Source of the DNA: a virus
Length of the DNA: 64,000 nucleotides
Strand: one strand, 5' to 3'
IMG/VR virus record: IMGVR_UViG_3300050120_000210
Span: 1-64,000 of that record
Position 1 is the first letter of the stretch; the number at the start of each line of letters is the position of its first letter. Shown piece by piece: positions 12,398-59,705 of this stretch. The notes below the pieces were generated by a model. The model was not told where the DNA came from, searched no databases, and saw only the letters and a program-made list of their open reading frames with translations. The position numbers were made by a program, and so were the translations under genes.

Positions 12398-12724
12398 ATG
12401 GTGGCGAAAACCTACGACCCGAAAACTATGGCGCTCGCTGCCGAATATCCCTTTGAGGTGATGGTGCAATCTAGCACCGATCCTGTCGGGTCGCGGCAAG
12501 GGTTCGGCGTGAAGCTGGGAGTTTCGAGCCGTGGTTCGGGCAAAGTCAACGATAGCGGGTTCGATAATGCCGTTAGAGAAATGATGGACTGGTGTAACGA
12601 GAATTGCGTTTTCTTCTGGATGCTGGGGCCGGTTCTTCCGATCAAAGTGTTCGAGACGTGGACATACAATTTCGCCTTCGTAGACGAACAAGACGCGATG
12701 TTTTTTAAGCTGCGGTGGCAATGA
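12398..12724 (+). CDS. Small-protein paralog family member carrying an 18-codon copy of the prohead protease motif
   Basis: Ends YNFAFVDEQDAMFFKLRWQ; contains GVKLGVSSRGSGKVNDSG. Confidence 0.65.
   Translation: MVAKTYDPKTMALAAEYPFEVMVQSSTDPVGSRQGFGVKLGVSSRGSGKVNDSGFDNAVREMMDWCNENCVFFWMLGPVLPIKVFETWTYNFAFVDEQDAMFFKLRWQ
12505..12558 (+). repeat. 54-nt direct repeat, copy 1 (copy 2 at 26342-26395)
   Basis: CGGCGTGAAGCTGGGAGTTTCGAGCCGTGGTTCGGGCAA[A/C]GTCAACGATAGCGG, 53/54 identical. Confidence 0.95.
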
Positions 12725-13947
12725 AATCCGAACTGATCCTTATGTTGCAAGAGCGTGGTTTCATCAACCAAGCGACTAACCTTGAGGGGTTGGATGCGCT
12801 GGCGCTTGAGCAGAAAATCACGAGCTACATCGGTTTCGATTTGACCGCCGACAGCTTGCACGTCGGCTCGCTGGTGCAGATCATGTTGCTGCGTCACATG
12901 ACAAAGCTCGGCCACGATCCCTTGATCCTCTTGGGTGAGGCGACCACGCGCATTGGCGATCCGTCCGGCAAGAGCGCGGCAAGGCCGATGCTCACCCGTG
13001 ACCAGATCGAGCACAACCGTCTGGGCATCGAAAAAGTTTTCCGCAAGTTCGTGGACAATCCGACGTTCGTTTCGAACGCCGCATGGTTCGACGATGACAC
13101 GACTCTGTTCGGTTACCTGCACGACTACGGCCCGCATTTTTCCATCAACCGGATGCTCACGTTTGATTCGGTGAAGTCGCGCCTGCGTGGGAACTCGACG
13201 CTGTCGTTCCTTGAGTTCAACTACATGCTCATGCAGGCCATCGACTTCTTCAAGCTGTCTGAAACCATGGACTGCGTGTTGCAGATCGGCGGCTCGGATC
13301 AGTGGGGCAACATCATCAACGGTGTCGAACTGGTTCGTCGAAAGAGCAGCCGTGAGGTGTTCGGGCTGACCACTCCGCTGATGACCAACTCGGCCGGGGA
13401 GAAAATGGGCAAGACCGCCGATGGCGCCATCTGGCTCGACCCGGATAAAACCTCGGCGTTTGAGTTCTGGCAGTTCTGGCGGAACGTGGAAGATGTGAAG
13501 GTCGGAGAGTTCCTTCGCCTGTTCACCGACCTCGATCTCGATGAAATCACGCGTCTGGAAATCCTCGGTGGTCAGGAACTCAACGAGGCCAAGAAAATCC
13601 TCGCGACTGAGGTGACGGCCATGGTCCACGGTAGGGCCACCGCTGCACACGTTGCGCTGCTCACCACGGGCGGTAACGTCGATCCCTGCCCGGATAGTAT
13701 GCCGATGCACATTATCCCGTCAGCGGCCTTCTCTGCGGGCATTACGCTCGCTCAAATCCTTCTCGACAGCAAGTTGGTCACGTCGAAGGGGGAAGCTGAT
13801 CGAATGGCCGCTAACGATGGTGTGAAGATCAACGGGCACATCGTCAACGACGTGCGTGAGGTTCTTCCTCGCCATGCGTTCGAGGACAACAGCTTCCTGC
13901 TCTCCGTGGGCAAGAAGAAGATGATCGCCGTGAAGATCGAGGACTGA
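12721..13947 (+). CDS. tyrS: Tyrosyl-tRNA synthetase
   Basis: YIGFDLTADSLHVGSL (HIGH-type), IGDPSG, QIGGSDQWGNI, KMGKT, C-terminal S4-like domain. Confidence 0.96.
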   Translation: MKSELILMLQERGFINQATNLEGLDALALEQKITSYIGFDLTADSLHVGSLVQIMLLRHMTKLGHDPLILLGEATTRIGDPSGKSAARPMLTRDQIEHNRLGIEKVFRKFVDNPTFVSNAAWFDDDTTLFGYLHDYGPHFSINRMLTFDSVKSRLRGNSTLSFLEFNYMLMQAIDFFKLSETMDCVLQIGGSDQWGNIINGVELVRRKSSREVFGLTTPLMTNSAGEKMGKTADGAIWLDPDKTSAFEFWQFWRNVEDVKVGEFLRLFTDLDLDEITRLEILGGQELNEAKKILATEVTAMVHGRATAAHVALLTTGGNVDPCPDSMPMHIIPSAAFSAGITLAQILLDSKLVTSKGEADRMAANDGVKINGHIVNDVREVLPRHAFEDNSFLLSVGKKKMIAVKIED

Positions 13948-17256: not shown

Positions 17257-17664
17257 GTGACAGACAAATATTGGATCGTCACGCACGAAGTCCATCCGCC
17301 GCAGTATGCCCTACATGGTTCCGTGGCTCGGCCGGGCATGGCGATATCCGCAGAAGACCCGGTGTCTCATTTCGATAAGATGGTTGACGACATTCGTCTT
17401 GACGCTCATCGCCTTTCGGGTATCAGTCCAACGTTCGTAGATTTCGTAGCCAAGTCTCGTAACATGAAAGATGTTACCTTGCGATGGTGTCTGTTCGATG
17501 GCACTTCGGCATTGGCTTTTGCTATGCTTGTCAGCGGAAAGATAACAGAGCGGGACTGGCCGATAGCTATCGATGAACTGTCAGATGAAGAAAAACTCGT
17601 GGCTTTCTTCGACGTGGTGGTTTCGAACATGTGGACTGAGATAGTGGGGTCTGTGGGTGGATAA
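17257..17664 (+). CDS. Hypothetical protein
   Basis: 135-aa ORF in cassette. Confidence 0.5.
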   Translation: MTDKYWIVTHEVHPPQYALHGSVARPGMAISAEDPVSHFDKMVDDIRLDAHRLSGISPTFVDFVAKSRNMKDVTLRWCLFDGTSALAFAMLVSGKITERDWPIAIDELSDEEKLVAFFDVVVSNMWTEIVGSVGG

Positions 17665-18175
17665 GTTTTGTAAGTTCTGCGGCGTGGTGCATAGCGCCCC
17701 AGAGTATCCGAAGACATGCACAGCGTGTGAGCAGATCACATACGTCAATCCGACACCGGTTGCCGTGTTGCTTCAGCCGGTCACGGGTGCGGATGGGCGG
17801 TTCTCCGGTATCATCGTCGGCAAGCGCGGCATTGAACCCGGCAAGGGCGAATATGGCCTACCGGGTGGCTTCATCGACTGTGGCGATGTGGATGTGATCG
17901 AAGGTGCAAGGCGTGAATTCTGGGAAGAACTCGGCGTCACGGCGCCGCCCGCCAATCGCATGAGCCTCTTCTGGTCGTTCTCGAACACTCGCCAACTGTT
18001 GCTGTTTGTGCGCTCACACCTGACTCTGGACGAAGCCGAAGTCATGGCCGGGTTTACCCCCAACTTCGAATGCCCGGAAATCAGGATCGCCCGCAAGCCG
18101 GAGGCTTTGTGCTTCCCGTCACACACGCGGGCGCTGGCGATGTATTTCGACTGGTTCAACCAGCCCGGCGACTAA
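17657..18175 (+). CDS. Nudix hydrolase with N-terminal zinc ribbon
   Basis: Two CxxC pairs, then Nudix box LPGGFID...GARREFWEELG. Confidence 0.88.
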   Translation: MDKFCKFCGVVHSAPEYPKTCTACEQITYVNPTPVAVLLQPVTGADGRFSGIIVGKRGIEPGKGEYGLPGGFIDCGDVDVIEGARREFWEELGVTAPPANRMSLFWSFSNTRQLLLFVRSHLTLDEAEVMAGFTPNFECPEIRIARKPEALCFPSHTRALAMYFDWFNQPGD

Positions 18176-19858: not shown

Positions 19859-19960
19859 GTAATTTCCATCAAGAGTGAGTAATGTGCGAGTATTTAGAGG
19901 CCCATTAACTCCTCAGTTTAAGCACATCCTAAATAAAGGACCATATCATTATTGTAGGTC

Positions 19961-40455: not shown

Positions 40456-41508
40456 ATGCAAGTTCGATCTGCCGACCGCCAAGTCCTTCTCACGAGGGAC
40501 GTATTTCGCGAAGGCGTGTTCGCCCGCGATGGCCACAAATGCGTGTTCTGCGACAAACCGGCCGTAGACGCCCATCACATCCTCGAACGACGCCTATTCG
40601 TCTCGCCCGGCGAGCAAGGCGGCTACTTCATGAACAACGGTGCGTCGGTGTGTGGCGAGCATCACATGGCCTGTGAGATGACCACCATCTCCGTAGAGGA
40701 CGTGCGAATCGCCTGCGGGATCACCAAGCCCGTGATCCCTGCCCATCTCTATTCGGACCATGTTTACGATAAATGGGGCAACGTCGTACTGCCCGATGGC
40801 CGCCGCCTGAAGGGCGAACTGTTCAACGACGCCAGCGTTCAAAAGGTGTTGGGCATGGGCGGCGTGCTCGATCTCTTCACGCATTGGGTGAAATACCCCC
40901 GGACCCATCATCTGCCTTGGTCGGAAGGTCTGACCGAAGATGACCGGATGCTCGACACGCTCGATCACTATCGCGGCAAGCGCGTGATTGTGACTGAGAA
41001 GATGGATGGTGAAAACACCACCATGTATCAGGACTACATCCACGCCCGCAGCTTGGATGGTCGAAATCATTCCTCGCGCAACTGGGTCAAGAACTATTGG
41101 GGCCAGATTTGCGGTGACATTCCCGTGGACTGGCGGCTGTGCGGCGAGAACCTCTTCGCCAAGCATTCGATCACCTACGATGCCCTGCCGACGTATTTCA
41201 TGGGTTTCTCGATGTGGAATGACCGCAACGAGTGCCTGTCGTGGGACGAAACCATCGAATGGTTCACCCTGCTCGGTGTCACGCCGGTGCCAGTGCTGTT
41301 CGACGGCATCTTCGACGAGGCAAAAATCAAGGCGTTGTTCAACGTCAAGGATTGGGAACATCGCGAGGGCTATGTCCTGCGGATCGCCGATGGGTTTACC
41401 TATGGCGAGTTCCGCACTTCGGTATCGAAGTTCGTTCGGAAAAATCATGTCCAAACTGTGAAGCATTGGATGCACGGCAAGCCTGTTGAACAGAATGGGC
41501 TAGCCTGA
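40456..41508 (+). CDS. HNH domain fused to RNA ligase
   Basis: N-terminal RDGHKCVFC..DAHHI..NGASVCGEHH; C-terminal KYPRT, TEKMDGEN (motif I), GENL, REGYVLR. Confidence 0.8.
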   Translation: MQVRSADRQVLLTRDVFREGVFARDGHKCVFCDKPAVDAHHILERRLFVSPGEQGGYFMNNGASVCGEHHMACEMTTISVEDVRIACGITKPVIPAHLYSDHVYDKWGNVVLPDGRRLKGELFNDASVQKVLGMGGVLDLFTHWVKYPRTHHLPWSEGLTEDDRMLDTLDHYRGKRVIVTEKMDGENTTMYQDYIHARSLDGRNHSSRNWVKNYWGQICGDIPVDWRLCGENLFAKHSITYDALPTYFMGFSMWNDRNECLSWDETIEWFTLLGVTPVPVLFDGIFDEAKIKALFNVKDWEHREGYVLRIADGFTYGEFRTSVSKFVRKNHVQTVKHWMHGKPVEQNGLA

Positions 41509-49936: not shown

Positions 49937-50143
49937 TTACGACTTCTTCTCTTCGGCAACCTCTTCGTCGGCCTTGTCTTTCTTTTTGGTCTTGGTTTTC
50001 TTATTGATGCGGACCCGAACGTGCACGAATCGGAAAATCCGAGCGATGGCCGCGATAATCAAGAAACAGGCCACGAAGTGCCAGAAACCGCCGGACACGC
50101 TATAGGTGACCAACCATTCTACGAGTTCTTTGATCGCTTCCAT
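49937..50143 (-). CDS. Small membrane protein
   Basis: Hydrophobic helix then a basic tail. Confidence 0.5.
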   Translation of the reverse strand: MEAIKELVEWLVTYSVSGGFWHFVACFLIIAAIARIFRFVHVRVRINKKTKTKKKDKADEEVAEEKKS

Positions 50144-50658
50144 CAGGCGGCAACCACGTCGGCTTCAACCCCATCGGGGATGAGCCCGTCGAAAAGATAA
50201 ACGACCGGCTGCCAGTTCTTGGATTCCTCTTCGAGGATTTCGGCGATCACTGACCATTTGCCCTGAGCCAATCCGGCGCCGATCAGAGGAAGAGCCATGG
50301 CCACCGGCGGCGAGAAATCGAAAGACTTGATCGACTTGGCGTGTTCGTCGATTTTCTTCATCGCTTCGCGCAATCCTGCGTAGCTGACGTAGACGACGCC
50401 CGGCTCGCGGCCGTAGAACTCTTGCGAGATGACGTTGACGACGGTCTTGGCCAGAGCGGCGCTCGGAACCCAGATCACTTCACCGACCTTGAGACCCTGA
50501 TCCTCGTAGACCTTGCGGTAATCCGAGAACACTTTCTCGTCGGCATCGCGCAGCAGCTTGGCGACCCCGGAGCCCATGACACCTTGGGCGTTGCACCCTT
50601 GAATGATGAACTTCTCTTCCGCCTTGAGCAGATCACCGTGCTTGTAGATGATTTTCAT
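50143..50658 (-). CDS. Macrodomain ADP-ribose hydrolase
   Basis: GDLL, QGCNAQGVMGSGVA, PLIGAGLAQGKW. Confidence 0.88.
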   Translation of the reverse strand: MKIIYKHGDLLKAEEKFIIQGCNAQGVMGSGVAKLLRDADEKVFSDYRKVYEDQGLKVGEVIWVPSAALAKTVVNVISQEFYGREPGVVYVSYAGLREAMKKIDEHAKSIKSFDFSPPVAMALPLIGAGLAQGKWSVIAEILEEESKNWQPVVYLFDGLIPDGVEADVVAA

Positions 50659-50996
50659 TTTCCGTCCTCGATCTCGGCCATCTTGCGTTTGAACCAAGCG
50701 TCCTGCTTGGCATGTTTCCGGCGGAAATGCAGTCGCATAGCTTGCCGCATGTCCCATCCATCGATGTAACCGCAGAAAACGGCCACGAACATCAATCCGG
50801 CGCCCTGCCACCACGGGATGATTTTACCGTCGAGCGCCGACGCATAGATCGTCAAGAAGGCGGCGCCGCCAACGACCAAGCTCCATTTCATCCGCCAGAG
50901 GTTCCAGAAAATGAACCAGATGATCGTCCACGCGACGATCTGAATCTCTTGTAGGAGATTGAAGTGGATTTTCGTAGGTTCCGTCACGTCTGTCAT
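50655..50996 (-). CDS. Membrane protein
   Basis: Three hydrophobic segments. Confidence 0.55.
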   Translation of the reverse strand: MTDVTEPTKIHFNLLQEIQIVAWTIIWFIFWNLWRMKWSLVVGGAAFLTIYASALDGKIIPWWQGAGLMFVAVFCGYIDGWDMRQAMRLHFRRKHAKQDAWFKRKMAEIEDGK

Positions 50997-51280
50997 TACC
51001 ACGCCTTGGCAGGGGCTTGCTTCGATAGTACCCAACGCACCTCGCTATTGGACCATCGGGCGTAGAAGTACCCTTTTCCCTCGTCGTCCAACAGGGCTTT
51101 CTCGGCATCAGTAAGGTCTTGATGCTTCAGACCCATCCGGCCTTCGCGATAGACCACCGCATCGTCGGCCAGCATGTCGTAGACAACCTTGACGACATAG
51201 GTTGCTTCTTCACGAGCACGGCGCTCTTTTTCTTCCGTGATGGTTTTTGGCCGGGCGGCCCAGTTGATGCGTTGGGTCAT
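50996..51280 (-). CDS. Hypothetical protein
   Basis: Coupled ORF starting MTQRINW. Confidence 0.5.
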   Translation of the reverse strand: MTQRINWAARPKTITEEKERRAREEATYVVKVVYDMLADDAVVYREGRMGLKHQDLTDAEKALLDDEGKGYFYARWSNSEVRWVLSKQAPAKAW

Positions 51281-51738
51281 GACTTTCCCGATTGGAGGCG
51301 AGCCCGAATCTTCGTCAGGCGAGAACAAAACTCGCGCTCGGTCAACACGGTTTCACGCGCATCATTTTTGCCGATTGCATGGGTCAGGTTGGACGAACCG
51401 GTCGCCAGTAGCGCCCGACGAAACCCGTCGTTCTCTGCCAATGCGTCGAACGCATCATCCAACAGAGTTTGATATTCGTCGCCGTGACGATCAAAGGCGA
51501 CACCGGCCCACCAAAGGGTCTGTCGCTGTTTCCACGCCTTGTTGCGTTTCTGGCCACGACGTTTCGCGGCGAGACCGACGAGCTTGCAGACTTCGACTTG
51601 GATGTGGACCTTGTCGAACTTGAACGCCTGAACCAGTCCTTCCATGGAGTTGCACTCCACCCCTCGGAAGACGAAGGGATGTGGGGAGAAATTGCTCAGT
51701 TTGTCTGCGGGCCAGCCTTTGCCCGAGCCAATGTCCAT
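51277..51738 (-). CDS. NADAR protein, T4 gp30.3-like
   Basis: LSNFSPHPF..GVECNSMEG.VQA.K...TLWW.G...NDGFRRALLAT...TVLTEREF. Confidence 0.8.
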   Translation of the reverse strand: MDIGSGKGWPADKLSNFSPHPFVFRGVECNSMEGLVQAFKFDKVHIQVEVCKLVGLAAKRRGQKRNKAWKQRQTLWWAGVAFDRHGDEYQTLLDDAFDALAENDGFRRALLATGSSNLTHAIGKNDARETVLTEREFCSRLTKIRARLQSGKS

Positions 51739-52059
51739 TATGAGTCCGCCTTGACCAAGAAACGATCTGCGGCCACTGCACGGACCATGCCAGAAAAGAA
51801 TGGCGTCATGAACTCGACGGCAAGAGCGTGGGCCTTGCCGACCATGTAGCTATCGACGATCTCTCCCGAATACGAACCGATCATCCCGATCATGGCATCG
51901 TCTTCGTTGGCCGAATGCTCGGGATTGAAGCGTGCACGACGGCCGATCCACGCCTTAGCCTGTTCTTCGGTCTCGGCTACTGGAACGATCTCGGAAGACA
52001 TGATTTCGCTTTCGGAAAATCTCGTATGCGAAAACATTTACGACCATATAATCTAATGG

Positions 52060-52548
52060 TCAAGTTGCTTCGCCTGCTACCACTGCCTGTTGAACGCGAG
52101 CACGCAGCCTATACATATTGTAGATGTATTCCCACTCGGTCAGCGTTGTCCGTGTTGGATCATGATGTCCAATAACGTGGGTCAACAAGTCCACGCCAGT
52201 CTCGAACAAAGACTGGCGGAAGATTGGGTTTTGATCGAAGCAGGCATCGTAACCGCGTTCGATCAAGGTATGGAATTCACGAGACAATCTCGGATATGCC
52301 TTACCTCTCCACCACAGGGTTTGGGTATCTCGCCAGTCGTTCCCAACCTGTCCGACTTTGTAGGCTCTGTAGCCCACAAGAACTGCGATCATTTCTTGTT
52401 CTTCAAGCCCTTCGAACTTGAGAGATTGCAGCCAGCCTTCGATCCCGCCGCACTGAACGCCATCCATGACGAAGGGATATGACGCGAAGTTAGAAAGCGC
52501 CTTTCCGAGCCCGCCATTTCGGGAACCAAGATCGAGAATTGCAGTCAT
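52060..52548 (-). CDS. Second NADAR protein, T4 gp30.3-like
   Basis: LSNFASYPFVMDGVQCGGIEGWLQSLK...TLWWRG...QNPIFR...TTLTEWEY. Confidence 0.82.
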   Translation of the reverse strand: MTAILDLGSRNGGLGKALSNFASYPFVMDGVQCGGIEGWLQSLKFEGLEEQEMIAVLVGYRAYKVGQVGNDWRDTQTLWWRGKAYPRLSREFHTLIERGYDACFDQNPIFRQSLFETGVDLLTHVIGHHDPTRTTLTEWEYIYNMYRLRARVQQAVVAGEAT

Positions 52549-52747
52549 CTAGCCACCTCTAGAAACAAGATAGCCCCCATCTATTGTGGGGTCAAAATTC
52601 AACATTATGATAACCGACGATTTCATGCGGGTGCCGGTTTTCCATTAACAACCTTGAACTTTTTTCTTGACGAACGGTTGACAGCAAATGCAGGCCAAGT
52701 TACTTGCTGAAATCCCTACCGCTGCTTTCCAACAGGAGTGCCCTTAT

Positions 52748-53335
52748 ATGCAGCAATCGGAAGGCGGAAACGCCCAATTCAAGACTGAGATGGCCGTGAG
52801 CATGTTCAATGCTTACGCGGCCAACAACCACGTCGCCGCCACGGAAATTCCGGGTCTCATGGCGACCTTCTCCAAGGAACTGGACGTTCTGATGAACGTG
52901 GCGGCCCCCGCCACCGAACTGGAAAAGAAGGAACCTGCGGTCGCGATCCGCAAGTCCGTCACCCCGGATCACATCATCGACCTGTTCACCGGCCGCAAGT
53001 TCAAGTCCCTGAAGCGTTACCTCCGCACGTCGCACAACATGACGCCGGAGCAGTATCGCGCCTACTGGAACCTGCCGAAGGACTACCCGATGGTCGCCCC
53101 GGCCTACGCGCAACGTCGTTCCGACCTCGCGAAGTCCATGGGTCTCGGCCAAGGTGGGCGCCAGCCCGCCAAGACGGCTCCCGCCGCCGCTGAAGCGCCG
53201 AAGGCTCCCAAGGCCGCCGCCCCCAAGAAGGCCGCTGCCCCGAAAGCTCCGAAAGCCGCCAAGGCCCCGAAGGCTCCCGCTGCTGCCGCCGCTCCGGCTG
53301 AAGCTCCGGCCGCGTCGGAAACCGTCGCTTCCTAA
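52748..53335 (+). CDS. mucR: Ros/MucR-family regulator with Ala/Lys/Pro-rich tail
   Basis: PAVAIRKSVTPD..GRKFKSLKR.LRT..MTPEQYR..W.LP.DYPMVAPAYA..RS.LAKSMGLG; AGGAG RBS. Confidence 0.92.
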   Translation: MQQSEGGNAQFKTEMAVSMFNAYAANNHVAATEIPGLMATFSKELDVLMNVAAPATELEKKEPAVAIRKSVTPDHIIDLFTGRKFKSLKRYLRTSHNMTPEQYRAYWNLPKDYPMVAPAYAQRRSDLAKSMGLGQGGRQPAKTAPAAAEAPKAPKAAAPKKAAAPKAPKAAKAPKAPAAAAAPAEAPAASETVAS

Positions 53336-53361: not shown

Positions 53362-53392
53362 GAGGCCGCCGGGGTGACTCGGCGGCCTTTTT
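53362..53392 (+). terminator. Terminator after mucR
   Basis: AGGCCGCCG...CGGCGGCCT then a T-tract. Confidence 0.85.
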
Positions 53393-53490
53393 CGTGCCTG
53401 AAATTATATTTGGACTTTGCTTACGGCCGTGCTAAATAGAATCTAACAGTGGGAACAAACTCACTGGCCATACACATAGAAGGATTTTCT

Positions 53491-54645
53491 ATGGCCCATA
53501 TCACCCGTGCGCGGGAACATGACATTTGCGTCTTCATTGGACGCTTTCAACCCTTGCACGCTGGACATATGGGCGTGATTCTCAAGGCGTTGGAATACGC
53601 CGAGTTCCTCTTCATTCTCATCGGCTCTGCCAACGTCGCCCGTCGTCCTGACGCCAATCCCTTTTTCGCGGCCGAACGCATCGAGATGCTGCTCGCGTCT
53701 CTGCCGCCAGAGGCGCGCGAGCGAGTGATCTTCATTCCCATGGAAGATAGTGACTACGAAACTATCGATTGGGTGAATGCGGTCAACCGCGCCGTGACGA
53801 CCGAAGCGATCAAGATCATGGGCAAGCTCGATTCGAGCATCAGCCTGATCGGCCACTCCAAAGACCACACGTCTTTCTACCTGAAGCTCTTCCCGCAGTG
53901 GAACACTATCGACGTGGTGTCTTCTCGTCCCCTCGACGCGACCATACTGCGGAATCAGTTCTTCACGGGCAACACGGCTGTCGTCGATAACATGTTCCGC
54001 TACGCCGTGGAAAACCAAGACATCCCGCTAGGCGCCATCAACTGGCTGCGAGACTTCCAAAAACTGGATGTCTATGGCGAACTCGTCGAAGAGATGGAGT
54101 TCTATCGATCCTGTCACGCCCGTTGGGATGCGGAATCGTGGCCTGCGAGCCGCAACACTGTCACCGGTGATGCTCTGATTCTGCAATCCAACCATGTCCT
54201 GCTGATCCAGCGCGGTGAGTTCCCTCAGAAGGGAACGTGGGGTATGCCCGGCGGCCACACCAATACGAACGAAACTGTTGCCGATTCTGCGCTGCGCGAA
54301 GGCTACGAAGAGACCGGCATCAAAGTGCCCAAGATCGTTTTCGAAAAGGCGTTCGTCGGCAAAGACTATTTCGATGCTCCCCGCCGCGATCCGCGTGGCC
54401 GGTATATCGGACACGTCTTCATGTATCACTTGCAACCTTCGGCGCCGTCCTACGACACCACCAAGTCGCCTGTGGAGAACCGTCGCCGGGTGAAGGACGC
54501 GTTGTCTCTGCCGAAGGTGAAGGGCATGGACGACGCCATGGGTGCCAAGTGGTGGCACCTCGACGACCTCAAGCGGTCTGAGATGTTCTTGGACCACTAT
54601 TCCATCATTCGCAAAATGACTGCCCAGTTCGGGAAGGGAAATTAA
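53491..54645 (+). CDS. nadM: Bifunctional NMN/NaMN adenylyltransferase and Nudix ADP-ribose pyrophosphatase
   Basis: FIGRFQPLHAGH, NPF..ER, GHSKD.TSFYL; Nudix box MPGG...ALREGYEETG; RDPRGR; DDA..AKW. Confidence 0.92.
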   Translation: MAHITRAREHDICVFIGRFQPLHAGHMGVILKALEYAEFLFILIGSANVARRPDANPFFAAERIEMLLASLPPEARERVIFIPMEDSDYETIDWVNAVNRAVTTEAIKIMGKLDSSISLIGHSKDHTSFYLKLFPQWNTIDVVSSRPLDATILRNQFFTGNTAVVDNMFRYAVENQDIPLGAINWLRDFQKLDVYGELVEEMEFYRSCHARWDAESWPASRNTVTGDALILQSNHVLLIQRGEFPQKGTWGMPGGHTNTNETVADSALREGYEETGIKVPKIVFEKAFVGKDYFDAPRRDPRGRYIGHVFMYHLQPSAPSYDTTKSPVENRRRVKDALSLPKVKGMDDAMGAKWWHLDDLKRSEMFLDHYSIIRKMTAQFGKGN

Positions 54646-54646
54646 A

Positions 54647-56008
54647 ATGGACTTCGCGAAACGCGCACATGACCACAGCTTCCACATCGACCCCATCGTG
54701 CGGTCGCTGTTCGACACCGATTTCTACAAGCCGCTGATGCACCAGTTCATCTGGTCGCGCCACCCGAACACGCAGGTTACGTTCGGCGTGACCAACCGCA
54801 CGAAAGACGTGCCGCTCGCCGATATCATCGACGAGGGCGAACTGCGTGAGCAACTCGACCATGTCAAGTCGCTGACCTACACGAAATCGGAACTCATCAA
54901 CCTGAAAGGCCAGTCCTACTACGGTCAAGAGGGCATCTTCCGGCCGGGTTACATCGACTTCCTGCGGACCTTCCGCATGGGCGACTATAATCTCGAACGC
55001 GAGCGCGCGTTCAACGGCGGCGTGGGCTACGACACCGGCCAGTTCCGGTTGGAGTTCGACGACAAGTGGACGCACAGCAGCCCTTGGGAACTGCACTCGC
55101 TGACCGTCGTCAATGAACTTCGCAACCGGGCGCTCATGAAGTCGATGAGCAAGTCCGAACTGGACATCATGTATGCCCGCGCCAAGGTGAAGCTATACGC
55201 CAAGCTGAAGGCTCTGGCCGACGACCCGGCCCTCGAAGGCATCAGCGTCTCCGACTTCGGCACCCGCCGTCGCCATTCGTTCCTCTGGCAGGAATATGTC
55301 GTGCAGATGATGGCCGAAGTTCTCGGAGACCGGTTCGGCGGCACCTCGAACGTCTTCCTCGCCATGAAGCATGGTTTCGAAGCGCGGGGCACCAACGCGC
55401 ACGAACTGCCGATGGTCTACGCGGCTCTGGCCAAGAACGATGAAGAACTCGCGCAGGCGCCCTACAAGCTGTGCCACGACTGGGAGGCCGATGTTCGCGG
55501 CCCGCTGCAAATCATGCTGCCCGACACTTTCGGCACCACGGGGTTCCTGAAGAACGCCCCGCACGGCATGGCTGACTGGGCGGGTGCGCGCCCGGACTCC
55601 AAGAAAGCCAAACCCGCCATCGAAGAACTGATCGCTTACTGGGAATACCATTCCAAGGACCCGAAAACGAAGTTGGTCATCCCGAGCGATGGCCTCGACG
55701 TTCGTGTCCCCGGCTATGAGCCGCAGGGCGAAGACATCCCGACCATCTATCGCGAGTTCAAGGGCCGTGTTCGGATGTCGTTCGGTTGGGGAACGCTGGC
55801 GACCAATGACTTCGTCGGCTGCCATCCGAATCAAGCCGACTACATGAAGCCCGTCAGCCTCGTGTGCAAGGTGAAGTCGGCCGAAGGTCGCCCGGCGGTC
55901 AAGCTGTCGGACAACTACAACAAGGCCACTGGCCCCGCTGAAGAGATCGAACGCTATCGCCGCGTCTTCGGTATCGAAGGGCTGGCTGGCGTCCCGGTCA
56001 CCGTCTGA
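54647..56008 (+). CDS. pncB: Nicotinate phosphoribosyltransferase
   Basis: DTDFYK, DFGTRRRHS, GTSNV, GTNAHE, LPDTFGT, RPDS, SDGL, SFGWGT, KLSDN. Confidence 0.93.
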   Translation: MDFAKRAHDHSFHIDPIVRSLFDTDFYKPLMHQFIWSRHPNTQVTFGVTNRTKDVPLADIIDEGELREQLDHVKSLTYTKSELINLKGQSYYGQEGIFRPGYIDFLRTFRMGDYNLERERAFNGGVGYDTGQFRLEFDDKWTHSSPWELHSLTVVNELRNRALMKSMSKSELDIMYARAKVKLYAKLKALADDPALEGISVSDFGTRRRHSFLWQEYVVQMMAEVLGDRFGGTSNVFLAMKHGFEARGTNAHELPMVYAALAKNDEELAQAPYKLCHDWEADVRGPLQIMLPDTFGTTGFLKNAPHGMADWAGARPDSKKAKPAIEELIAYWEYHSKDPKTKLVIPSDGLDVRVPGYEPQGEDIPTIYREFKGRVRMSFGWGTLATNDFVGCHPNQADYMKPVSLVCKVKSAEGRPAVKLSDNYNKATGPAEEIERYRRVFGIEGLAGVPVTV

Positions 56009-56018
56009 GGAAAGAAAC

Positions 56019-56264
56019 ATGCATACCAAAGTCGAACGCAAGTTCACCCTCGACGAAGCGGACATCAAAGCCATCGTGGCGGCTCATCTGAGCACGCTCG
56101 GCGATCTTTCTGTCTCGCCGGAACAAGTCATCATCCACATCAAGGACAGCACGCCGTATGGCGGGGGAGGTGATGATGGAAAGCCTGCCGTGCTCACGGT
56201 GACGGCAGTTATCGAAGAACCGCCCGGCCCGTTTCTGCTGTCAGCGCATAGGACTCGCCGGTAA
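56019..56264 (+). CDS. Hypothetical protein
   Basis: GAGG RBS; inside the NAD cluster. Confidence 0.5.
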   Translation: MHTKVERKFTLDEADIKAIVAAHLSTLGDLSVSPEQVIIHIKDSTPYGGGGDDGKPAVLTVTAVIEEPPGPFLLSAHRTRR

Positions 56265-56327
56265 GGCGATTATCGTTGACCAAATCAATATTCAAGATAG
56301 CCTCTGAATAGAGGCAGAAGGATCAAA

Positions 56328-56966
56328 ATGAACAAGATTGCAATCAAGCAAGGGACCGACATTCTGGGTTCCATCGACCAGCAGGTTGACTTTGGCGACG
56401 ACGGCAAGCTGCCGGTCGCCGGTGGCAAGGCCACGGTCGAACCCACCAATCGTGTGGGCAAGAAGTTTCGGCGCGCGTTCAAATCGCAGGATTGGCACCC
56501 GGCCGACCACGGTTCGTTCGCCAGTCAACACGGCGTGGCCCCCTTCACGATGATTAAGTTGGGTGGTCTCGATCAAGTCGCGTGGACGGATCACTGCGTG
56601 CAGGGCACCGAAGGCGCCGAGTTCCTCCCCGGCCTCGATCTGCCAAACACCGTACTGGTCGTCCGCAAGGGCATGAACCGGATGATCGACAGTTACTCGG
56701 CGTTCTTCGAGAACGATGGCACGACGCCGACCGGCCTGAACGGCGCGCTGGCCGAACTCGGAATCAAGCGCATCTTCCTGACTGGTTTGGCCCGCAACTT
56801 CTGCGTTGCCTTCACGGCGCTGGATGCCATTCGGCTTGGTTACGAAGTCTTCATCTTCGAAGACGCCGTCGCCTCGATCCAAGATGGCTCGGACGAGGCT
56901 ATGACCGAAAAACTACTCGCCGCTGGCGTGAAGCTCATCACCACGGCCGACATCGAGGGGATTTGA
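56328..56966 (+). CDS. pncA: Nicotinamidase
   Basis: IDQQVDF, QDWHP.DH, W.DHCVQGT.GA, RKG..DSYSAF, GLARNFCV. Confidence 0.93.
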   Translation: MNKIAIKQGTDILGSIDQQVDFGDDGKLPVAGGKATVEPTNRVGKKFRRAFKSQDWHPADHGSFASQHGVAPFTMIKLGGLDQVAWTDHCVQGTEGAEFLPGLDLPNTVLVVRKGMNRMIDSYSAFFENDGTTPTGLNGALAELGIKRIFLTGLARNFCVAFTALDAIRLGYEVFIFEDAVASIQDGSDEAMTEKLLAAGVKLITTADIEGI

Positions 56967-56967
56967 G

Positions 56968-57618
56968 ATGACCGAATCGTTCGAAAGCAAATTCACCAAA
57001 ATCGGTGACGTGACGCTTCCCTACTATGCGGGAACCCGCGTCATGATGCTCCCGGTCATCATCGGCAACGAGGCCAGCATTCCCGATCTGCTGGCCGGTG
57101 AATGGAAGGCGACCTTCCATGAACTGTCCGAACTCGCCAATCCCGCCCACAAGGGCAAGGTTGGTTACCTGACCATCGACGAGAAAATTGTTCAACCTGC
57201 CAAGACCCATCGCCGCGAAGGCAAACACGTCGATGGCGTGTTCCAAGGCAGCACCGGTAGCTGGGGCGGCGGTGGAGGATGGGGCTCCGTGGGCAACGGT
57301 ATGATTACCGTCGCCTCGCACCCCGGTTGTCGTGCGTGGAACCAAACCTTCATCGGTCGCACCGGATACGAAGGCGAATGCGATCACCTCGCCGACCAGT
57401 GCGAAGGTGAAGGCACGCTGTTTGGCGCCGGTGAAGTGTTCTGGGTGGATGGATTGTGCGTCCATGAGTCGGTGGCCATGACGCGGCCGACTCCGCGCCA
57501 GTTCGTGCGACTCTCGCTGCCGTCGAATGCGGCGTGGTTCGAGGGCTACACAGAAAATCCGCTGGGCGTGCTTCCCACCGGCCCGATCCTCCCGCGCCGT
57601 TCGTTCATGGACGCCTGA
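56968..57618 (+). CDS. Putative Fe(II)/2OG-oxygenase-like (DSBH) protein
   Basis: HVDG ... VHES ... RQFVR spacing suggests HxD...H...R. Confidence 0.45.
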   Translation: MTESFESKFTKIGDVTLPYYAGTRVMMLPVIIGNEASIPDLLAGEWKATFHELSELANPAHKGKVGYLTIDEKIVQPAKTHRREGKHVDGVFQGSTGSWGGGGGWGSVGNGMITVASHPGCRAWNQTFIGRTGYEGECDHLADQCEGEGTLFGAGEVFWVDGLCVHESVAMTRPTPRQFVRLSLPSNAAWFEGYTENPLGVLPTGPILPRRSFMDA

Positions 57619-57620
57619 AT

Positions 57621-57932
57621 ATGACGGCTCCCGCACTTCATTCCTTTGAATATGCGCTGGTGGTGGTGTCTCAACGCCTGCTGCCGTCCGCATATCCGAC
57701 TGAAGTTGCGCGGGAGCTTTCCACCGTGCTCAACCGAGAAGTCAGCATCCCGCAAGTCGTGCTCTCGCTGAACCGGCTTGAGGAAAATGGCTTCGTGGTC
57801 ACCACGATCAGCGAAGCCCGGCCCGTTCGCGGTGGCCGTAAGCGGCGGATGATCTATGTCACGAAGTCCGGCGCGGATGCTGCGGTTCAGACGCGTGATT
57901 TCTACAATAACCTTCAGTTCGAGAAGGACTAA
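57621..57932 (+). CDS. PadR-family winged-helix regulator
   Basis: AYPTEVAREL...VS..QV..SLNRLEENGFV...RGGRKRRMIYVT..G. Confidence 0.75.
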   Translation: MTAPALHSFEYALVVVSQRLLPSAYPTEVARELSTVLNREVSIPQVVLSLNRLEENGFVVTTISEARPVRGGRKRRMIYVTKSGADAAVQTRDFYNNLQFEKD

Positions 57933-57935
57933 AAA

Positions 57936-59705
57936 ATGAAGATCAAGATCGCCGTCGTGCAATTCAATCCCAAGGTGGGAGCACTGGAAGACAACGCCGC
58001 CCGGATGCTCGGACTGTATTCGGCCGCCGCCGTGTCCGGCGCCGATCTCGTCGTGTTCCCCGAATGCGCGCTCACTGGCTATCCGCTGGAAGACCTCGTG
58101 TTGCGTCACAGCTTCATGGACGCCGTGGTCGTGGAATCGAAGGCGTTCATCGACGCGGTTTATGCCACCGGCCTGAAAGCATCCGTGATCTTTGGTACGC
58201 CCATCCACGGTGTGGCCATCAACGGCGATGATCGGTCGGGCAATGGCGCCATCCTGTTTGATCCCACCACGGGCAAATGGGAATCGGTTCTCAAATACGA
58301 ACTGCCGAATTACGGCGTGTTCGACGAGAAGCGCATTTTCCAACGCGGCGAAGACCCGATCCATACCATTGAATGGCGTGGCAAGAAAATCGGCCTGATG
58401 ATCTGCGAAGACGCGTGGTTCTCGACCGTCACGAATCGGCTCTACACGGATGACGCCGTCTTCCTCATCTCGATCAACGGTTCGCCGTTCGAGTCCGGCA
58501 AGAACGTCATCCGCCACAACGTCGTCAAGGAACGGATGAACGAAACCGGCCTGCCGTTCCTCTACGTGAACATGGTCGGTGGACAAGACGAACTGGTGTT
58601 CGACGGTGGGTCTTTCCTCTACGACAGCAACGGTCTGCAAGAGGCTCCCTACTTCGAAGATGGTCTCTTCTTTTTCGACACAGAAATCACCGAAGAGAAA
58701 CGATCCCAGTCGATGTCGTGGGGTGATCCGCCACCTCCGGCAATCATGACCTTCACCGACTTCCCAACCATCGTTCCCACCGGCATCGGCGCGATCTACC
58801 AAGCCTGCGTGCTCGGTCTGCGGGACTACGTGACCAAGCAGGGTTTCAAGAGCGTCTTGCTGGGATATTCCGGCGGGGTGGACTCCGGTATCGTCGCCGC
58901 CATGGCCTGCGATGCTCTGGGTCACGAGAACGTTCTGTTGGTCCGTCTACCCTCCAATTTCTCATCGGACGGTTCGCTCACCGACGCCGCTGATGGGGCC
59001 AAGCGGCTCGGTGCGGCGATGCGGACGATCTACATCGAAGGGATCGTCAACGAACTGCGGCGGTCCTACACCACGGCGACATACGGTCATGACGAAAACG
59101 CGCCGGGTGCTTCACAGTTGGACAAGCACCTCGAAGGTGTGGCCGACGAGAACATCCAAGCTCGCGCTCGCGGGACCGTCCTGATGGCCATCAGCAATCA
59201 GGAAGGCCATATGCTCTTGACCACCGGCAACAAGTCGGAAGTCAGCGTGGGCTATTCGACGCTCTACGGCGACATGTCGGGCGGCTTCAATCCGATCAAG
59301 GATTGCTACAAGGTCACGGTCTGGGACCTCTGCCGCTGGCGGAACGCCTTGACCGCTCAGCAAATCCGCGACTTCGGGTTCATGGGCGCGGCGACGGAGG
59401 TTGTGCCGGAAGCAATCATCGTCAAGCCGCCGTCCGCCGAACTTCGGCCGGACCAACAAGACAGTGACAGCCTTCCCGCCTATCCGATTCTCGACGCGAT
59501 GCTGAAGGCGATGATCGAAGACGAACTTAGCGTCAACGAGATCGTTGACAAGCTGGGTCTTGATATCGACTTGGTCAAACGCATCCGGCGACTGGTGGAC
59601 AACGCAGAATACAAGCGCCGTCAAGCGGCGCCGGGCGTGAAGATCACCAGCAAGATTCACGGCCGGGATCGTCGCTACCCCATCGTCAACGCGTGGAGGA
59701 ACTGA
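57936..59705 (+). CDS. nadE: Glutamine-dependent NAD+ synthetase
   Basis: Nitrilase triad FPE / K..LPNYGVFDEKR / ICED; synthetase SGGVDS, ENIQARARG, TGNKSE, TLYGD, PSAEL, EYKRRQ. Confidence 0.95.
   Translation: MKIKIAVVQFNPKVGALEDNAARMLGLYSAAAVSGADLVVFPECALTGYPLEDLVLRHSFMDAVVVESKAFIDAVYATGLKASVIFGTPIHGVAINGDDRSGNGAILFDPTTGKWESVLKYELPNYGVFDEKRIFQRGEDPIHTIEWRGKKIGLMICEDAWFSTVTNRLYTDDAVFLISINGSPFESGKNVIRHNVVKERMNETGLPFLYVNMVGGQDELVFDGGSFLYDSNGLQEAPYFEDGLFFFDTEITEEKRSQSMSWGDPPPPAIMTFTDFPTIVPTGIGAIYQACVLGLRDYVTKQGFKSVLLGYSGGVDSGIVAAMACDALGHENVLLVRLPSNFSSDGSLTDAADGAKRLGAAMRTIYIEGIVNELRRSYTTATYGHDENAPGASQLDKHLEGVADENIQARARGTVLMAISNQEGHMLLTTGNKSEVSVGYSTLYGDMSGGFNPIKDCYKVTVWDLCRWRNALTAQQIRDFGFMGAATEVVPEAIIVKPPSAELRPDQQDSDSLPAYPILDAMLKAMIEDELSVNEIVDKLGLDIDLVKRIRRLVDNAEYKRRQAAPGVKITSKIHGRDRRYPIVNAWRN

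Follow-up and report, generated by a model that had tools for sequence, protein, structure and literature searches.

A predicted deamidating NAD+ salvage operon of probable NARP2-type descent in a T4-like megaphage of alphaproteobacteria

The window analyzed here, a stretch of 64,000 nucleotides, is part of a 149-kb record of a T4-like megaphage whose host group is the alphaproteobacteria; the fragment is ∼26% complete. Four intact genes, nadM-Nudix, pncB, pncA and nadE, lie on the plus strand in one co-oriented block, with three small additional ORFs interspersed among them. These ORFs were absent from an earlier note on this DNA. The features of the locus, in window positions, are as follows.

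50143-52548, minus strand: divergent neighbors acting on ADP-ribose, comprising two gp30.3/NADAR-family genes (52060-52548 and 51277-51738) and a macro-domain gene (50143-50814)
52688-53335, plus strand: mucR, encoding a Ros/MucR-family protein (PF05443, E=2.5e-39), directly upstream of the cluster
53364-53392, plus strand: terminator-like hairpin, GGCCGCCG / CGGCGGCC followed by T5, read from the sequence
53433-53438, plus strand: TAAATA, a late-promoter-like motif of the T4 type
53447-53496, plus strand: two-hairpin 5′ leader (MFE −15.7 kcal/mol, z −3.2)
53491-54645, plus strand: nadM-Nudix, N-terminal NMN/NaMN adenylyltransferase plus ADP-ribose pyrophosphatase (Nudix) domain
54647-56008, plus strand: pncB, nicotinate phosphoribosyltransferase, starting 1 nt after the nadM stop
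56019-56264, plus strand: 81-aa ORF with no assigned function, RBS GAGGAAAG, not conserved in related clusters
56328-56966, plus strand: pncA, nicotinamidase
56968-57618, plus strand: 216-aa phrog_8970 protein, a variable insert outside the core pathway
57618-57932, plus strand: 104-aa ORF whose ATG overlaps the preceding stop (ATGA)
57936-59705, plus strand: nadE, two-domain glutamine-dependent NAD+ synthetase

The earlier note had described four intact, co-oriented enzymes with catalytic motifs, and this was confirmed by matches to Pfam, NCBIfam and PDB entries together with residue alignments. Whether the phosphoribosyltransferase belongs with PncB or with NAMPT, a point which that note had left to HMM and phylogenetic analysis, was settled in favor of PncB. 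The protein scored 380.5 bits against NCBIfam NF003704 (cut-off, 379) and was placed inside the PncB clade, with phage NAMPTs as a distant outgroup on a very long branch (support, 100%). It carries NAPRTase_N (PF17767, E=1.8e-17) and NAPRTase domains, the N-terminal domain not being NAMPT_N, and matched PDB 1YBE with E=4e-138. It grouped with PncB of the Sphingomonadales (support, 96), and also with that of Caulobacter, and its nearest relatives (P0001-P0006) were 74 to 91% identical. No NAMPT was found in the whole 149-kb record (∼26% complete), in which pncB was the only NAPRTase-family gene. By sequence, the enzyme is a true PncB, and a preference for nicotinate is predicted.

NadM-Nudix contains the Pfam domains CTP_transf_like and NUDIX, both of which were covered by a match to PDB 2QJO (E=8e-53). 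A single chain carries the HxGH (H23AGH26) and TxxR (T151ILR154) motifs and an intact Nudix box (residues 255 to 277, G255-G277). Translation likely starts at ATG 53491, which has an AAGGA RBS, rather than at GTG 53449. The top NCBIfam score of 281 bits was well under the equivalog cut-offs, and NadM-Nudix is, therefore, regarded as a divergent member. NaMN specificity cannot be read from the sequence; NadM is the only candidate present for an NaMN adenylyltransferase between PncB and NadE, and it may act on NaMN. Archaeal NadM enzymes accept both NMN and NaMN, and in Acinetobacter a bifunctional NadM is paired with a fused NAD synthetase (both from PMC3376133).

PncA matched the Acinetobacter nicotinamidase (PDB 2WT9, E=2e-45), with the D17/K114/C159 triad and the D55/H57/H89 metal site kept in the alignment; its score of 172 bits against NF008623 was slightly below the cut-off of 174. 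NadE scored 610 bits against NF010588 (cut-off, 479) and 609 bits against phrog_36784, and exhibits a nitrilase-like E43/K132/C157 glutaminase triad and an S312GGVDS P-loop. The phrog_8970 protein is predicted to adopt a double-stranded beta-helix fold like that of Fe(II)/2OG dioxygenases; H87xD89 is invariant and H166 near-invariant, and the ORF was missing from related clusters. The 104-aa ORF gave a weak PadR-like winged-helix match (PF03551, E=0.032, below the cut-off), and no relative was found for it in the PDB. On the minus strand, an ORF at 56938-57693 was discarded as noncoding in view of its low GC3 and Arg-rich product, the plus-strand ORF being the one that matches phrog_8970.

A late-type TAAATA before nadM-pncB, reported previously for this locus, was supported by intergenic enrichment and by position. 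Across the 149-kb record, 22 of 43 copies were intergenic, compared with an intergenic fraction of 7.9% (p=1e-13), and copies were located 18 to 37 nt upstream of the portal gene and others, as well as upstream of nadM in related loci. Judged by this motif alone, transcription of the operon seems to be driven by a late promoter of the T4 type. A sigma70-like promoter proposed at 56276 was rejected; it has a good −35 element (TTGACC) but no acceptable −10 element and was not called by a promoter scan. The terminator-like hairpin at 53364-53392 probably closes mucR, setting this gene apart from the NAD operon.

The leader consists of one hairpin at 53447-53466, with the loop AACAAA, and another at 53475-53493, which holds the GGA of the Shine-Dalgarno sequence in its loop and the AUG in its 3′ arm. 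A covariance model, R1, was used in which the family is defined by a G-AUAGA-C-loop hairpin, a linker and an SD-in-loop hairpin directly before the start codon. This model matched the window leader with 20.4 bits (E=0.0013 in 24 kb), the sole significant match there. Both hairpins are correctly placed, but AACAAA stands where the family has G-AUAGA-C, and the AUAGA loop is also missing from the leaders of two close relatives, L004 and L005. The window leader is best read as a diverged copy of an uncatalogued two-hairpin RNA found ahead of nadM and nampt across many phages. Rfam scans of this leader and two canonical leaders returned no family. Pairing of the AUAGA loop with the start region to form a pseudoknot was also weighed, but the bases needed for it were not consistent from locus to locus, and the idea was abandoned.

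Co-occurrence of pncA, pncB, nadM and nadE, for which the earlier note had suggested a survey of phage genomes, was detected in six further IMG/VR contigs (L004, L005, L006, L009, L029 and L038). The window gene order was kept in five of the six, and protein identity was only 34 to 64%. The related loci were recovered by searches with alignments as the query; a single PncB protein as the query returned none, and megablast of the NAD cluster against GenBank phages gave no match. Among the phage genomes surveyed, the route was confined to very large phages. In all seven contigs nadM heads the operon and is translationally coupled to pncB, and the L006 cluster forms a tight operon with intergenic gaps of 4 to 13 nt. 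A mucR gene lies upstream in five related clusters, and the NADAR-family gene corresponding to 52060-52548 adjoins the cluster in L004, L005, L009 and L038 also. Together, the two NADAR genes and the macro-domain gene give the operon an ADP-ribose-linked context. PADLOC, run on all of the cluster proteins, gave only a weak match to the Nudix domain.

A NAMPT with the NAMPT_N domain directly follows NadM-Nudix in 27 other phage loci, which is the NARP2 layout, whereas PncB takes that place in the window clade. The NadM proteins linked to PncB fall on one side of a single branch in an unrooted tree (SH-aLRT 94; 0 of 500 shuffles as low), and the leader specific to NadM appears to be retained in this lineage. 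As PncB sits in the NAMPT slot and the PncB-linked NadMs form one group, the module would descend from a NARP2-type nadM-nampt pair in which, within one lineage of alphaproteobacterial megaphages, a seemingly host-like PncB replaced NAMPT in place, with PncA and NadE as further additions. The direction of this exchange is taken from the unrooted tree and is provisional to that extent, and the phages with PncB might be no more than close relatives of one another.

Depletion of NAD+ is among the commonest bacterial means of halting a phage, and phages have three proven routes for reversing it. The operon probably encodes a nearly self-contained deamidating NAD+ salvage of the Preiss-Handler type, descended from NARP2 and serving the upkeep of NAD+, including against NADases. 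In this compact nicotinamide-to-NAD+ cassette, PncA would deamidate nicotinamide to nicotinate, PncB would combine nicotinate with PRPP, yielding NaMN, the NadM domain would adenylylate NaMN to NaAD and NadE would amidate NaAD to NAD+ with glutamine. The Nudix domain would split ADP-ribose into AMP and ribose-5-phosphate, which host Prs could convert to PRPP. No PRPP synthetase (Pribosyltran_N) was found in the window, as had been noted before, or in the whole 149-kb record (∼26% complete); hence, the step from ADP-ribose to PRPP needs the host. By analogy, the operon would maintain or replenish NAD+ in the infected cell, also when defenses cleave it, and may fit hosts that deamidate nicotinamide fast or that have no salvage of their own. 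The earlier note had presented this rebuilding of NAD+ as a candidate third phage NARP route. Its enzymology was upheld by the PncB clade and by the absence of NAMPT, Adps/Prs and PnuC from the record, but the label could not stand, as NARP3 is already the name of a PnuC and NadR system that restores NAD+ from nicotinamide riboside (Sci Adv 2026, PMC13464706).

A role as metabolic cargo, supplying NAD+ to a large, slowly replicating, NAD-needy phage or complementing a salvage-less host with no selection by NADase defenses, has to be weighed against a counter-defense role. NARP2 raises or over-produces NAD+ even without a defense system, according to its authors (bioRxiv 10.1101/2024.02.11.579819), and a plain metabolic role would, therefore, explain the genes equally well. 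The restriction of the route to very large phages points the same way, as does the lack of an NAPRTase-family gene in a Caulobacter vibrioides control genome. A study of "NAD-jumbo phages" (PMC11662467) reports NAD pathways in 174 of 668 jumbo phages, alongside numerous genes that consume NAD and pathways that complement those of the host. On the other hand, the NadM-Nudix backbone is common to NARP2, a proven counter-defense system (bioRxiv 10.1101/2024.02.11.579819), the substrate of the Nudix domain is a product of NAD cleavage and the adjacent NADAR and macro-domain genes suggest conflict over ADP-ribose. The two roles are compatible with each other, and the exclusively metabolic account, while possible, seems rather doubtful.

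Other alternatives concern the order of the steps. In a Francisella-type order, NadE would be an NMN synthetase converting NaMN to NMN, NadM would adenylylate NMN and NaAD would never be made. NadM enzymes use NMN effectively, the phage NadM appears to derive from NMN-using NARP2 partners and in Francisella NadD is replaced by NadM together with NadE as NMN synthetase (PMC3376133). No two-domain glutamine-dependent NadE was found described there as an NMN synthetase, however, and Acinetobacter couples a conventional fused NAD synthetase to its bifunctional NadM; the phage NadE reaches 610 bits on an NAD+ synthase equivalog (NF010588), and Bordetella-type operons join NadM to the same two-domain NadE. 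This order is, hence, considered improbable. It is similarly unlikely that the cluster depends on host NadD for NaAD, with an NMN-specific NadM and the phage giving the flanking steps and ADP-ribose hydrolysis. Such dependence would accord with the unreadable specificity of NadM, with the reliance of the operon on host Prs and with the requirement for an NaMN adenylyltransferase in every bacterial host for de novo synthesis. The position of nadM at the head of all seven operons, coupled translationally to pncB, and the existence of bacterial pncB-nadE-nadM operons argue instead for a role of NadM within the route.

If the self-contained salvage operon works as read, the deamidated branch of NAD synthesis is also used by phages. 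It would be a case of pathway construction, one enzyme of an anti-defense pair having been exchanged for three host-type enzymes, and would predict hosts or defenses for which the amidated routes fall short. A bolder and only tentative proposal is that the operon is a fourth, deamidating NAD+ reconstitution pathway, in which NAMPT was exchanged for PncB, and PncA and NadE were gained, in one alphaproteobacterial megaphage lineage. This rebuilt NARP2 pair would pass NADase-released nicotinamide through nicotinate, with NadM retuned to NaMN. NAD+ would then be rebuilt where hosts deamidate nicotinamide fast or NAMPT-based salvage fails, and the lost leader loop in the sub-lineage would mark a parallel regulatory change. 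In the literature searched, no experimental test of a phage deamidating route or of its role in counter-defense was found.

The closest known system is NARP2, formed by Nampt and a bifunctional Nmnat/Nudix enzyme in Vibrio phage KVP40 (Osterman et al., bioRxiv 10.1101/2024.02.11.579819). Both systems have NadM-Nudix as the first gene with the phosphoribosyltransferase directly next and nicotinamide plus PRPP as inputs, and their leaders probably belong to one RNA family. The NARP2 phosphoribosyltransferase is, however, a Nampt (NAMPT_N; PF18127 and PF04095), whereas the window has the Nmnat partner next to a PncB with NAPRTase_N and no NAMPT in the 149-kb record. The window also adds PncA and NadE, its predicted intermediates are deamidated (NA, NaMN and NaAD) and its route costs more ATP, plus glutamine. 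NARP1 (Adps and Namat) also restores NAD+ but, unlike the window, uses ADPR-PP as a substrate. The Prs-like Adps (Pribosyltran_N) of NARP1 and the PnuC (NMN_transporter) and NadR kinase of NARP3 were not found in the 149-kb record, which is ∼26% complete.

Similar enzymes are combined in bacteria (loci L089-L097), as pncA-pncB-nadE-nadM in Bordetella and as pncB-nadE-nadM in Polaromonas, Rhodoferax and Peristeroidobacter, and the Pseudomonas salvage I operon is pncA-pncB-nadE. The Bordetella operon has the same four enzyme families, including NadM-Nudix and the two-domain NadE. The bacterial NadM operons differ from that of the phage in gene order, and their proteins are only 26 to 39% identical; as the phage PncB groups with those of the Sphingomonadales and Caulobacter, the operon of the phage was not copied from a bacterial one with NadM.

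The general concept has been published before on the basis of genomes. Complete Preiss-Handler clusters of "NAD-jumbo phages", such as pncB-nadD-nadE in Kuafu_71, have been described (Microbiome 2024, PMC11662467), with counter-defense suggested from genomes only. Like the operon in the window, these are clustered, phage-borne deamidated routes in very large phages. The window differs in having NadM-Nudix rather than NadD, a NadE of the fused glutamine-dependent type, an alphaproteobacterial rather than a gut Bacteroidota host and a probable descent from the NARP2 backbone; it also has PncA and, therefore, nicotinamide as its entry point. Sinorhizobium phage Phosso and Agrobacterium phage Atu_ph07 encode a PncB 51% identical to that of the window; in Phosso, NadE, PncB, Nudix, NMNAT and an isochorismatase-like gene lie inside 6 kb, and the 735-kb phage LR756501 groups PncB, NadE, PnuC, NadR and a PncA-like gene. 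No description of these three sets as a pathway was found in the literature searched. Unlike the window, they use nonorthologous parts (an NH3-type single-domain NadE and separate Nudix and NMNAT proteins) in other layouts. The same route appears to have been assembled recurrently in other giant phages, namely Phosso, LR756501 and Kuafu_71 (PMC11662467). What the present locus contributes is a defined architecture, a proposed evolutionary link to NARP2 and seven natural versions of the operon.

The region spanning positions 53433 to 59705 contained seven ORFs, all on the + strand, of which four encoded NAD-metabolism enzymes. The locus, including its upstream neighbors, was arranged as follows.

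50143-52548, - strand: macro-domain gene and two genes of the gp30.3/NADAR family, divergent from mucR and the NAD operon
52688-53335: Ros/MucR-family gene with an Ala/Pro/Lys-rich tail, immediately 5′ of the NAD operon
53364-53392: terminator-like hairpin closing mucR
53433: TAAATA, late-promoter-like
53447-53496: two-hairpin leader, a diverged copy, between TAAATA and the nadM start codon
53491-54645, + strand: NadM-Nudix fusion (Pfam CTP_transf_like and NUDIX domains)
54647-56008, + strand: PncB (NAPRTase_N and NAPRTase domains)
56019-56264, + strand: 81-aa ORF matching no family
56328-56966, + strand: PncA (alignment to Acinetobacter nicotinamidase 2WT9)
56968-57618, + strand: phrog_8970 protein, between pncA and nadE
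57618-57932, + strand: ORF with a sub-threshold PadR-like match
57936-59705, + strand: two-domain, glutamine-dependent NadE (NF010588)

The earlier note had described four intact, co-oriented NAD enzymes, and this description was confirmed and extended by the domains, scores and catalytic residues detected. The closest solved structure for NadM-Nudix was Synechocystis NadM (2QJO; E=8e-53), with both domains covered, and the H23xGH26, T151xxR154 and Nudix box motifs were intact. The nadM ORF opens with a GTG at 53449, but translation more likely starts at an ATG (53491) that follows an AAGGA ribosome-binding site. PncB scored 380.5 bits against NCBIfam NF003704 (cut-off, 379), its closest solved structure being Agrobacterium nicotinate phosphoribosyltransferase (1YBE; E=4e-138). 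PncA retained both the D17/K114/C159 triad and the D55/H57/H89 metal site of 2WT9, while NadE scored 610 bits against its family model (cut-off, 479) and contained an E43/K132/C157 triad and an SGGVDS loop. The three small ORFs exhibited no conservation in related clusters and were treated as inserts rather than as pathway members. The phrog_8970 protein has more than 450 phage and bacterial homologues, with H87xD89 invariant and the distal His, H166, near-invariant; its structure model, a confident one (pLDDT 90), has a double-stranded beta-helix fold and weakly resembled Fe(II)/2OG dioxygenases of that fold, and it is probably a small enzyme of this type inserted between pncA and nadE.

The question of PncB versus NAMPT, also raised in the earlier note, was settled clearly in favor of PncB by the N-terminal NAPRTase_N domain and by tree placement. 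In a maximum-likelihood tree, a very long branch led to the NAMPTs as an outgroup, whereas the window protein grouped, with good support, with PncBs from Sphingomonadales and from other phages. Phage and alphaproteobacterial PncBs were interleaved within this group, suggestive of repeated exchange with hosts. The 27 phage genes located directly after NadM-Nudix elsewhere formed a single sequence cluster, and NAMPT_N was detected by Pfam in 4/4 of those scanned.

When IMG/VR was scanned with a PncB alignment, PncB relatives were detected at 35 loci, and the contigs carrying many of these loci were 240 to 578 kb long. NadE was located within ∼2 kb of PncB in 28 of these loci and was mostly of the single-domain type, the two-domain type being present in the window's clade and a few others. 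The complete four-gene set was found in six further contigs (L004, L005, L006, L009, L029 and L038), with the order NadM-Nudix, PncB, PncA, NadE in five; the PncA-like gene of L009 was very divergent. Intergenic gaps between the four genes were 4 to 13 nt in L006. Protein identities were only 34 to 64%, and maintenance of the gene order despite this divergence argues for selection on the four-gene set. A second scan, performed with NadM-Nudix, yielded 45 phage loci, in which the following gene was NAMPT (the NARP2 layout) in 27 and PncB in loci from 8 contigs (one contig twice). In an unrooted NadM tree, one branch (SH-aLRT, 94) had all of the PncB-linked NadMs on the same side (0/500 shuffles as low). 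Full-length bacterial NadM-Nudix relatives were gamma- or betaproteobacterial, with identities of ≤38%, and no alphaproteobacterial relative was found. The simplest reading of these sequences is that NadM would be the phage lineage's own NARP2 gene, with one lineage having swapped NAMPT in place for a host-like PncB and having gained PncA and NadE. The direction of this swap and its single origin are inferences, given an unrooted tree and phages that may be close kin.

Operons of the form pncB-nadE-nadM were detected in Betaproteobacteria, including Bordetella, Polaromonas and Rhodoferax, and in Peristeroidobacter (L095 and L096 in Bordetella, the other loci being L089, L093, L094 and L097), and NadE was always of the two-domain type. 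An upstream pncA, giving a single pncA-pncB-nadE-nadM block, was detected only in Bordetella tumbae (L095). The proteins of these operons were 26 to 39% identical to the phage proteins and their PncBs formed a distant clade, indicating that these operons are analogous to the phage one but did not give rise to it; they provide a cellular precedent for NadM-Nudix in a deamidated route. Both NMN and NaMN are substrates of archaeal NadM, the bifunctional NadM of Acinetobacter is paired with a conventional fused NAD synthetase, and the NadE partnering Francisella NadM is an NMN synthetase (PMC3376133), so that two orders of steps are possible for the phage route. While the Francisella pairing makes it possible that the phage NadM operates with a NadE acting as an NMN synthetase, the phage NadE is a high-scoring fused NAD+ synthase and, hence, the order NaMN to NaAD to NAD+, in which NadM would accept NaMN, is favored.

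The late-type TAAATA noted before nadM-pncB was supported by wider analyses. In the 149-kb record, 22 of 43 copies were intergenic compared to an intergenic fraction of 7.9% (p=1e-13). The motif, found for example at record positions 19930, 22494 and 24880, often read CTAAATA or ATAAATA. It preceded the portal gene, among others, by 18 to 37 nt and was also present upstream of nadM in related loci. This enrichment and recurrence support a T4-type late promoter element, which TAAATA probably represents in this phage, and the NAD operon is likely to be expressed late. A sigma70-like promoter previously placed at 56276 was rejected, as an acceptable −10 was absent and the promoter scan did not call it. 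A perfect 6-bp hairpin (56300-56315; GCCTCT GAAT AGAGGC) was observed just 5′ of the pncA Shine-Dalgarno, within the operon's only sizeable intergenic gap.

In the leader RNA, as observed across phage loci, a linker joined two hairpins: the first had an invariant G-AUAGA-C loop, and the second, just 5′ of the start codon, had the Shine-Dalgarno in its loop. Copies were present directly 5′ of nadM, with a second copy 5′ of NAMPT, in many phage loci (L039-L083; e.g., L043:7945-8003 and L043:9480-9533). The covariation score was 0.72 for 28 sequences, in which hairpin 1 but not hairpin 2 was partly selected by the search pattern, as against 0.20 for shuffles (0/500 reaching the observed score) and ≤0.18 for slid controls. 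A covariance-model search of 1.19 Mb gave 50 matches, 50/50 on the gene strand; strong matches (E < ∼0.01) immediately preceded either nadM or the NAMPT gene that follows it, with a few weak matches elsewhere. No matching family was found in Rfam. The window copy folds into two hairpins (−15.7 kcal/mol; z, −3.2) and was the sole significant match in 24 kb (20.4 bits; E=0.0013). Its loop 1 is AACAAA, and the AUAGA loop was likewise absent from L004 and L005, its closest relatives.

The gene content of the window was that of a phage: besides portal and major head proteins, it encoded an SbcC-like nuclease, a tyrosyl-tRNA synthetase (12715-13947), an RNA ligase (40456-41508) and a second, stand-alone Nudix protein (17657-18175). 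The parent IMG/VR record is linear (149 kb; CheckV completeness, 26%); as contigs with the same cluster reach 561 and 578 kb, the source is probably a megaphage. We infer an alphaproteobacterial host from the upstream Ros/MucR gene, from the closest named cellular PncBs (Sphingomonadales and Caulobacter; 57 to 59% identity) and from 51% identity to the PncBs of Sinorhizobium phage Phosso and Agrobacterium phage Atu_ph07. MucR was upstream of the cluster in five of the six four-gene contigs, and the nearest NADAR gene kept its position in four related contigs. The two NADAR genes and the macro-domain gene indicate a locus devoted to ADP-ribose and NAD. PRPP synthetase, PnuC, NAD-dependent ligase and NAPRTase-family genes other than PncB were not found in the 149-kb (26% complete) record.

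The deamidating pathway proposed in the earlier note remains credible as a putative route, but it is not a third NARP and, in outline, is not new. NARP1 consists of Adps and Namat and NARP2 of Nampt and Nmnat (bioRxiv 10.1101/2024.02.11.579819), while NARP3 consists of PnuC and NadR (PMC13464706); phage PncA, PncB and NadE go unmentioned in both papers. Complete salvage or Preiss-Handler pathways were reported in 2024 for 174 of 668 gut jumbo-phage genomes, including a pncB-nadD-nadE cluster, and countering of NAD+ depletion was suggested without experiments (PMC11662467). Experiments on a phage deamidating route were not found in the literature searched. Other published phage genomes carry the route without remark. 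Genes for an NH3-type NadE, PncB, Nudix, NMNAT and an isochorismatase-like protein are grouped in Phosso, and Atu_ph07 encodes PncB as well as a distant two-domain NadE. The NAD island of a published 735-kb megaphage (LR756501.1, 421500-433500), whose record lacks annotation, holds PncB, an NH3-type NadE, PnuC, NadR, a PncA-like gene and a TonB-dependent receptor-like gene. Among 50,697 GenBank phage records, PncB matched 13, NadE 27 and PncA 11, several being doubtful as phage; in these records, the deamidating route is rare, and only very large phages carry it. An anti-defense role may be proposed by analogy, and the four-gene operon is readily testable. Compared to NARP2, the backbone of NadM-Nudix followed by a PRTase is kept, while PncB occupies the NAMPT slot and PncA and a glutamine-dependent NadE are added. 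What is new is this defined architecture and its conservation in seven megaphage contigs, the likely late expression of the operon, and retention of the leader 5′ of nadM through the putative change from NAMPT to PncB, with loss of the conserved loop in the window's sub-lineage.
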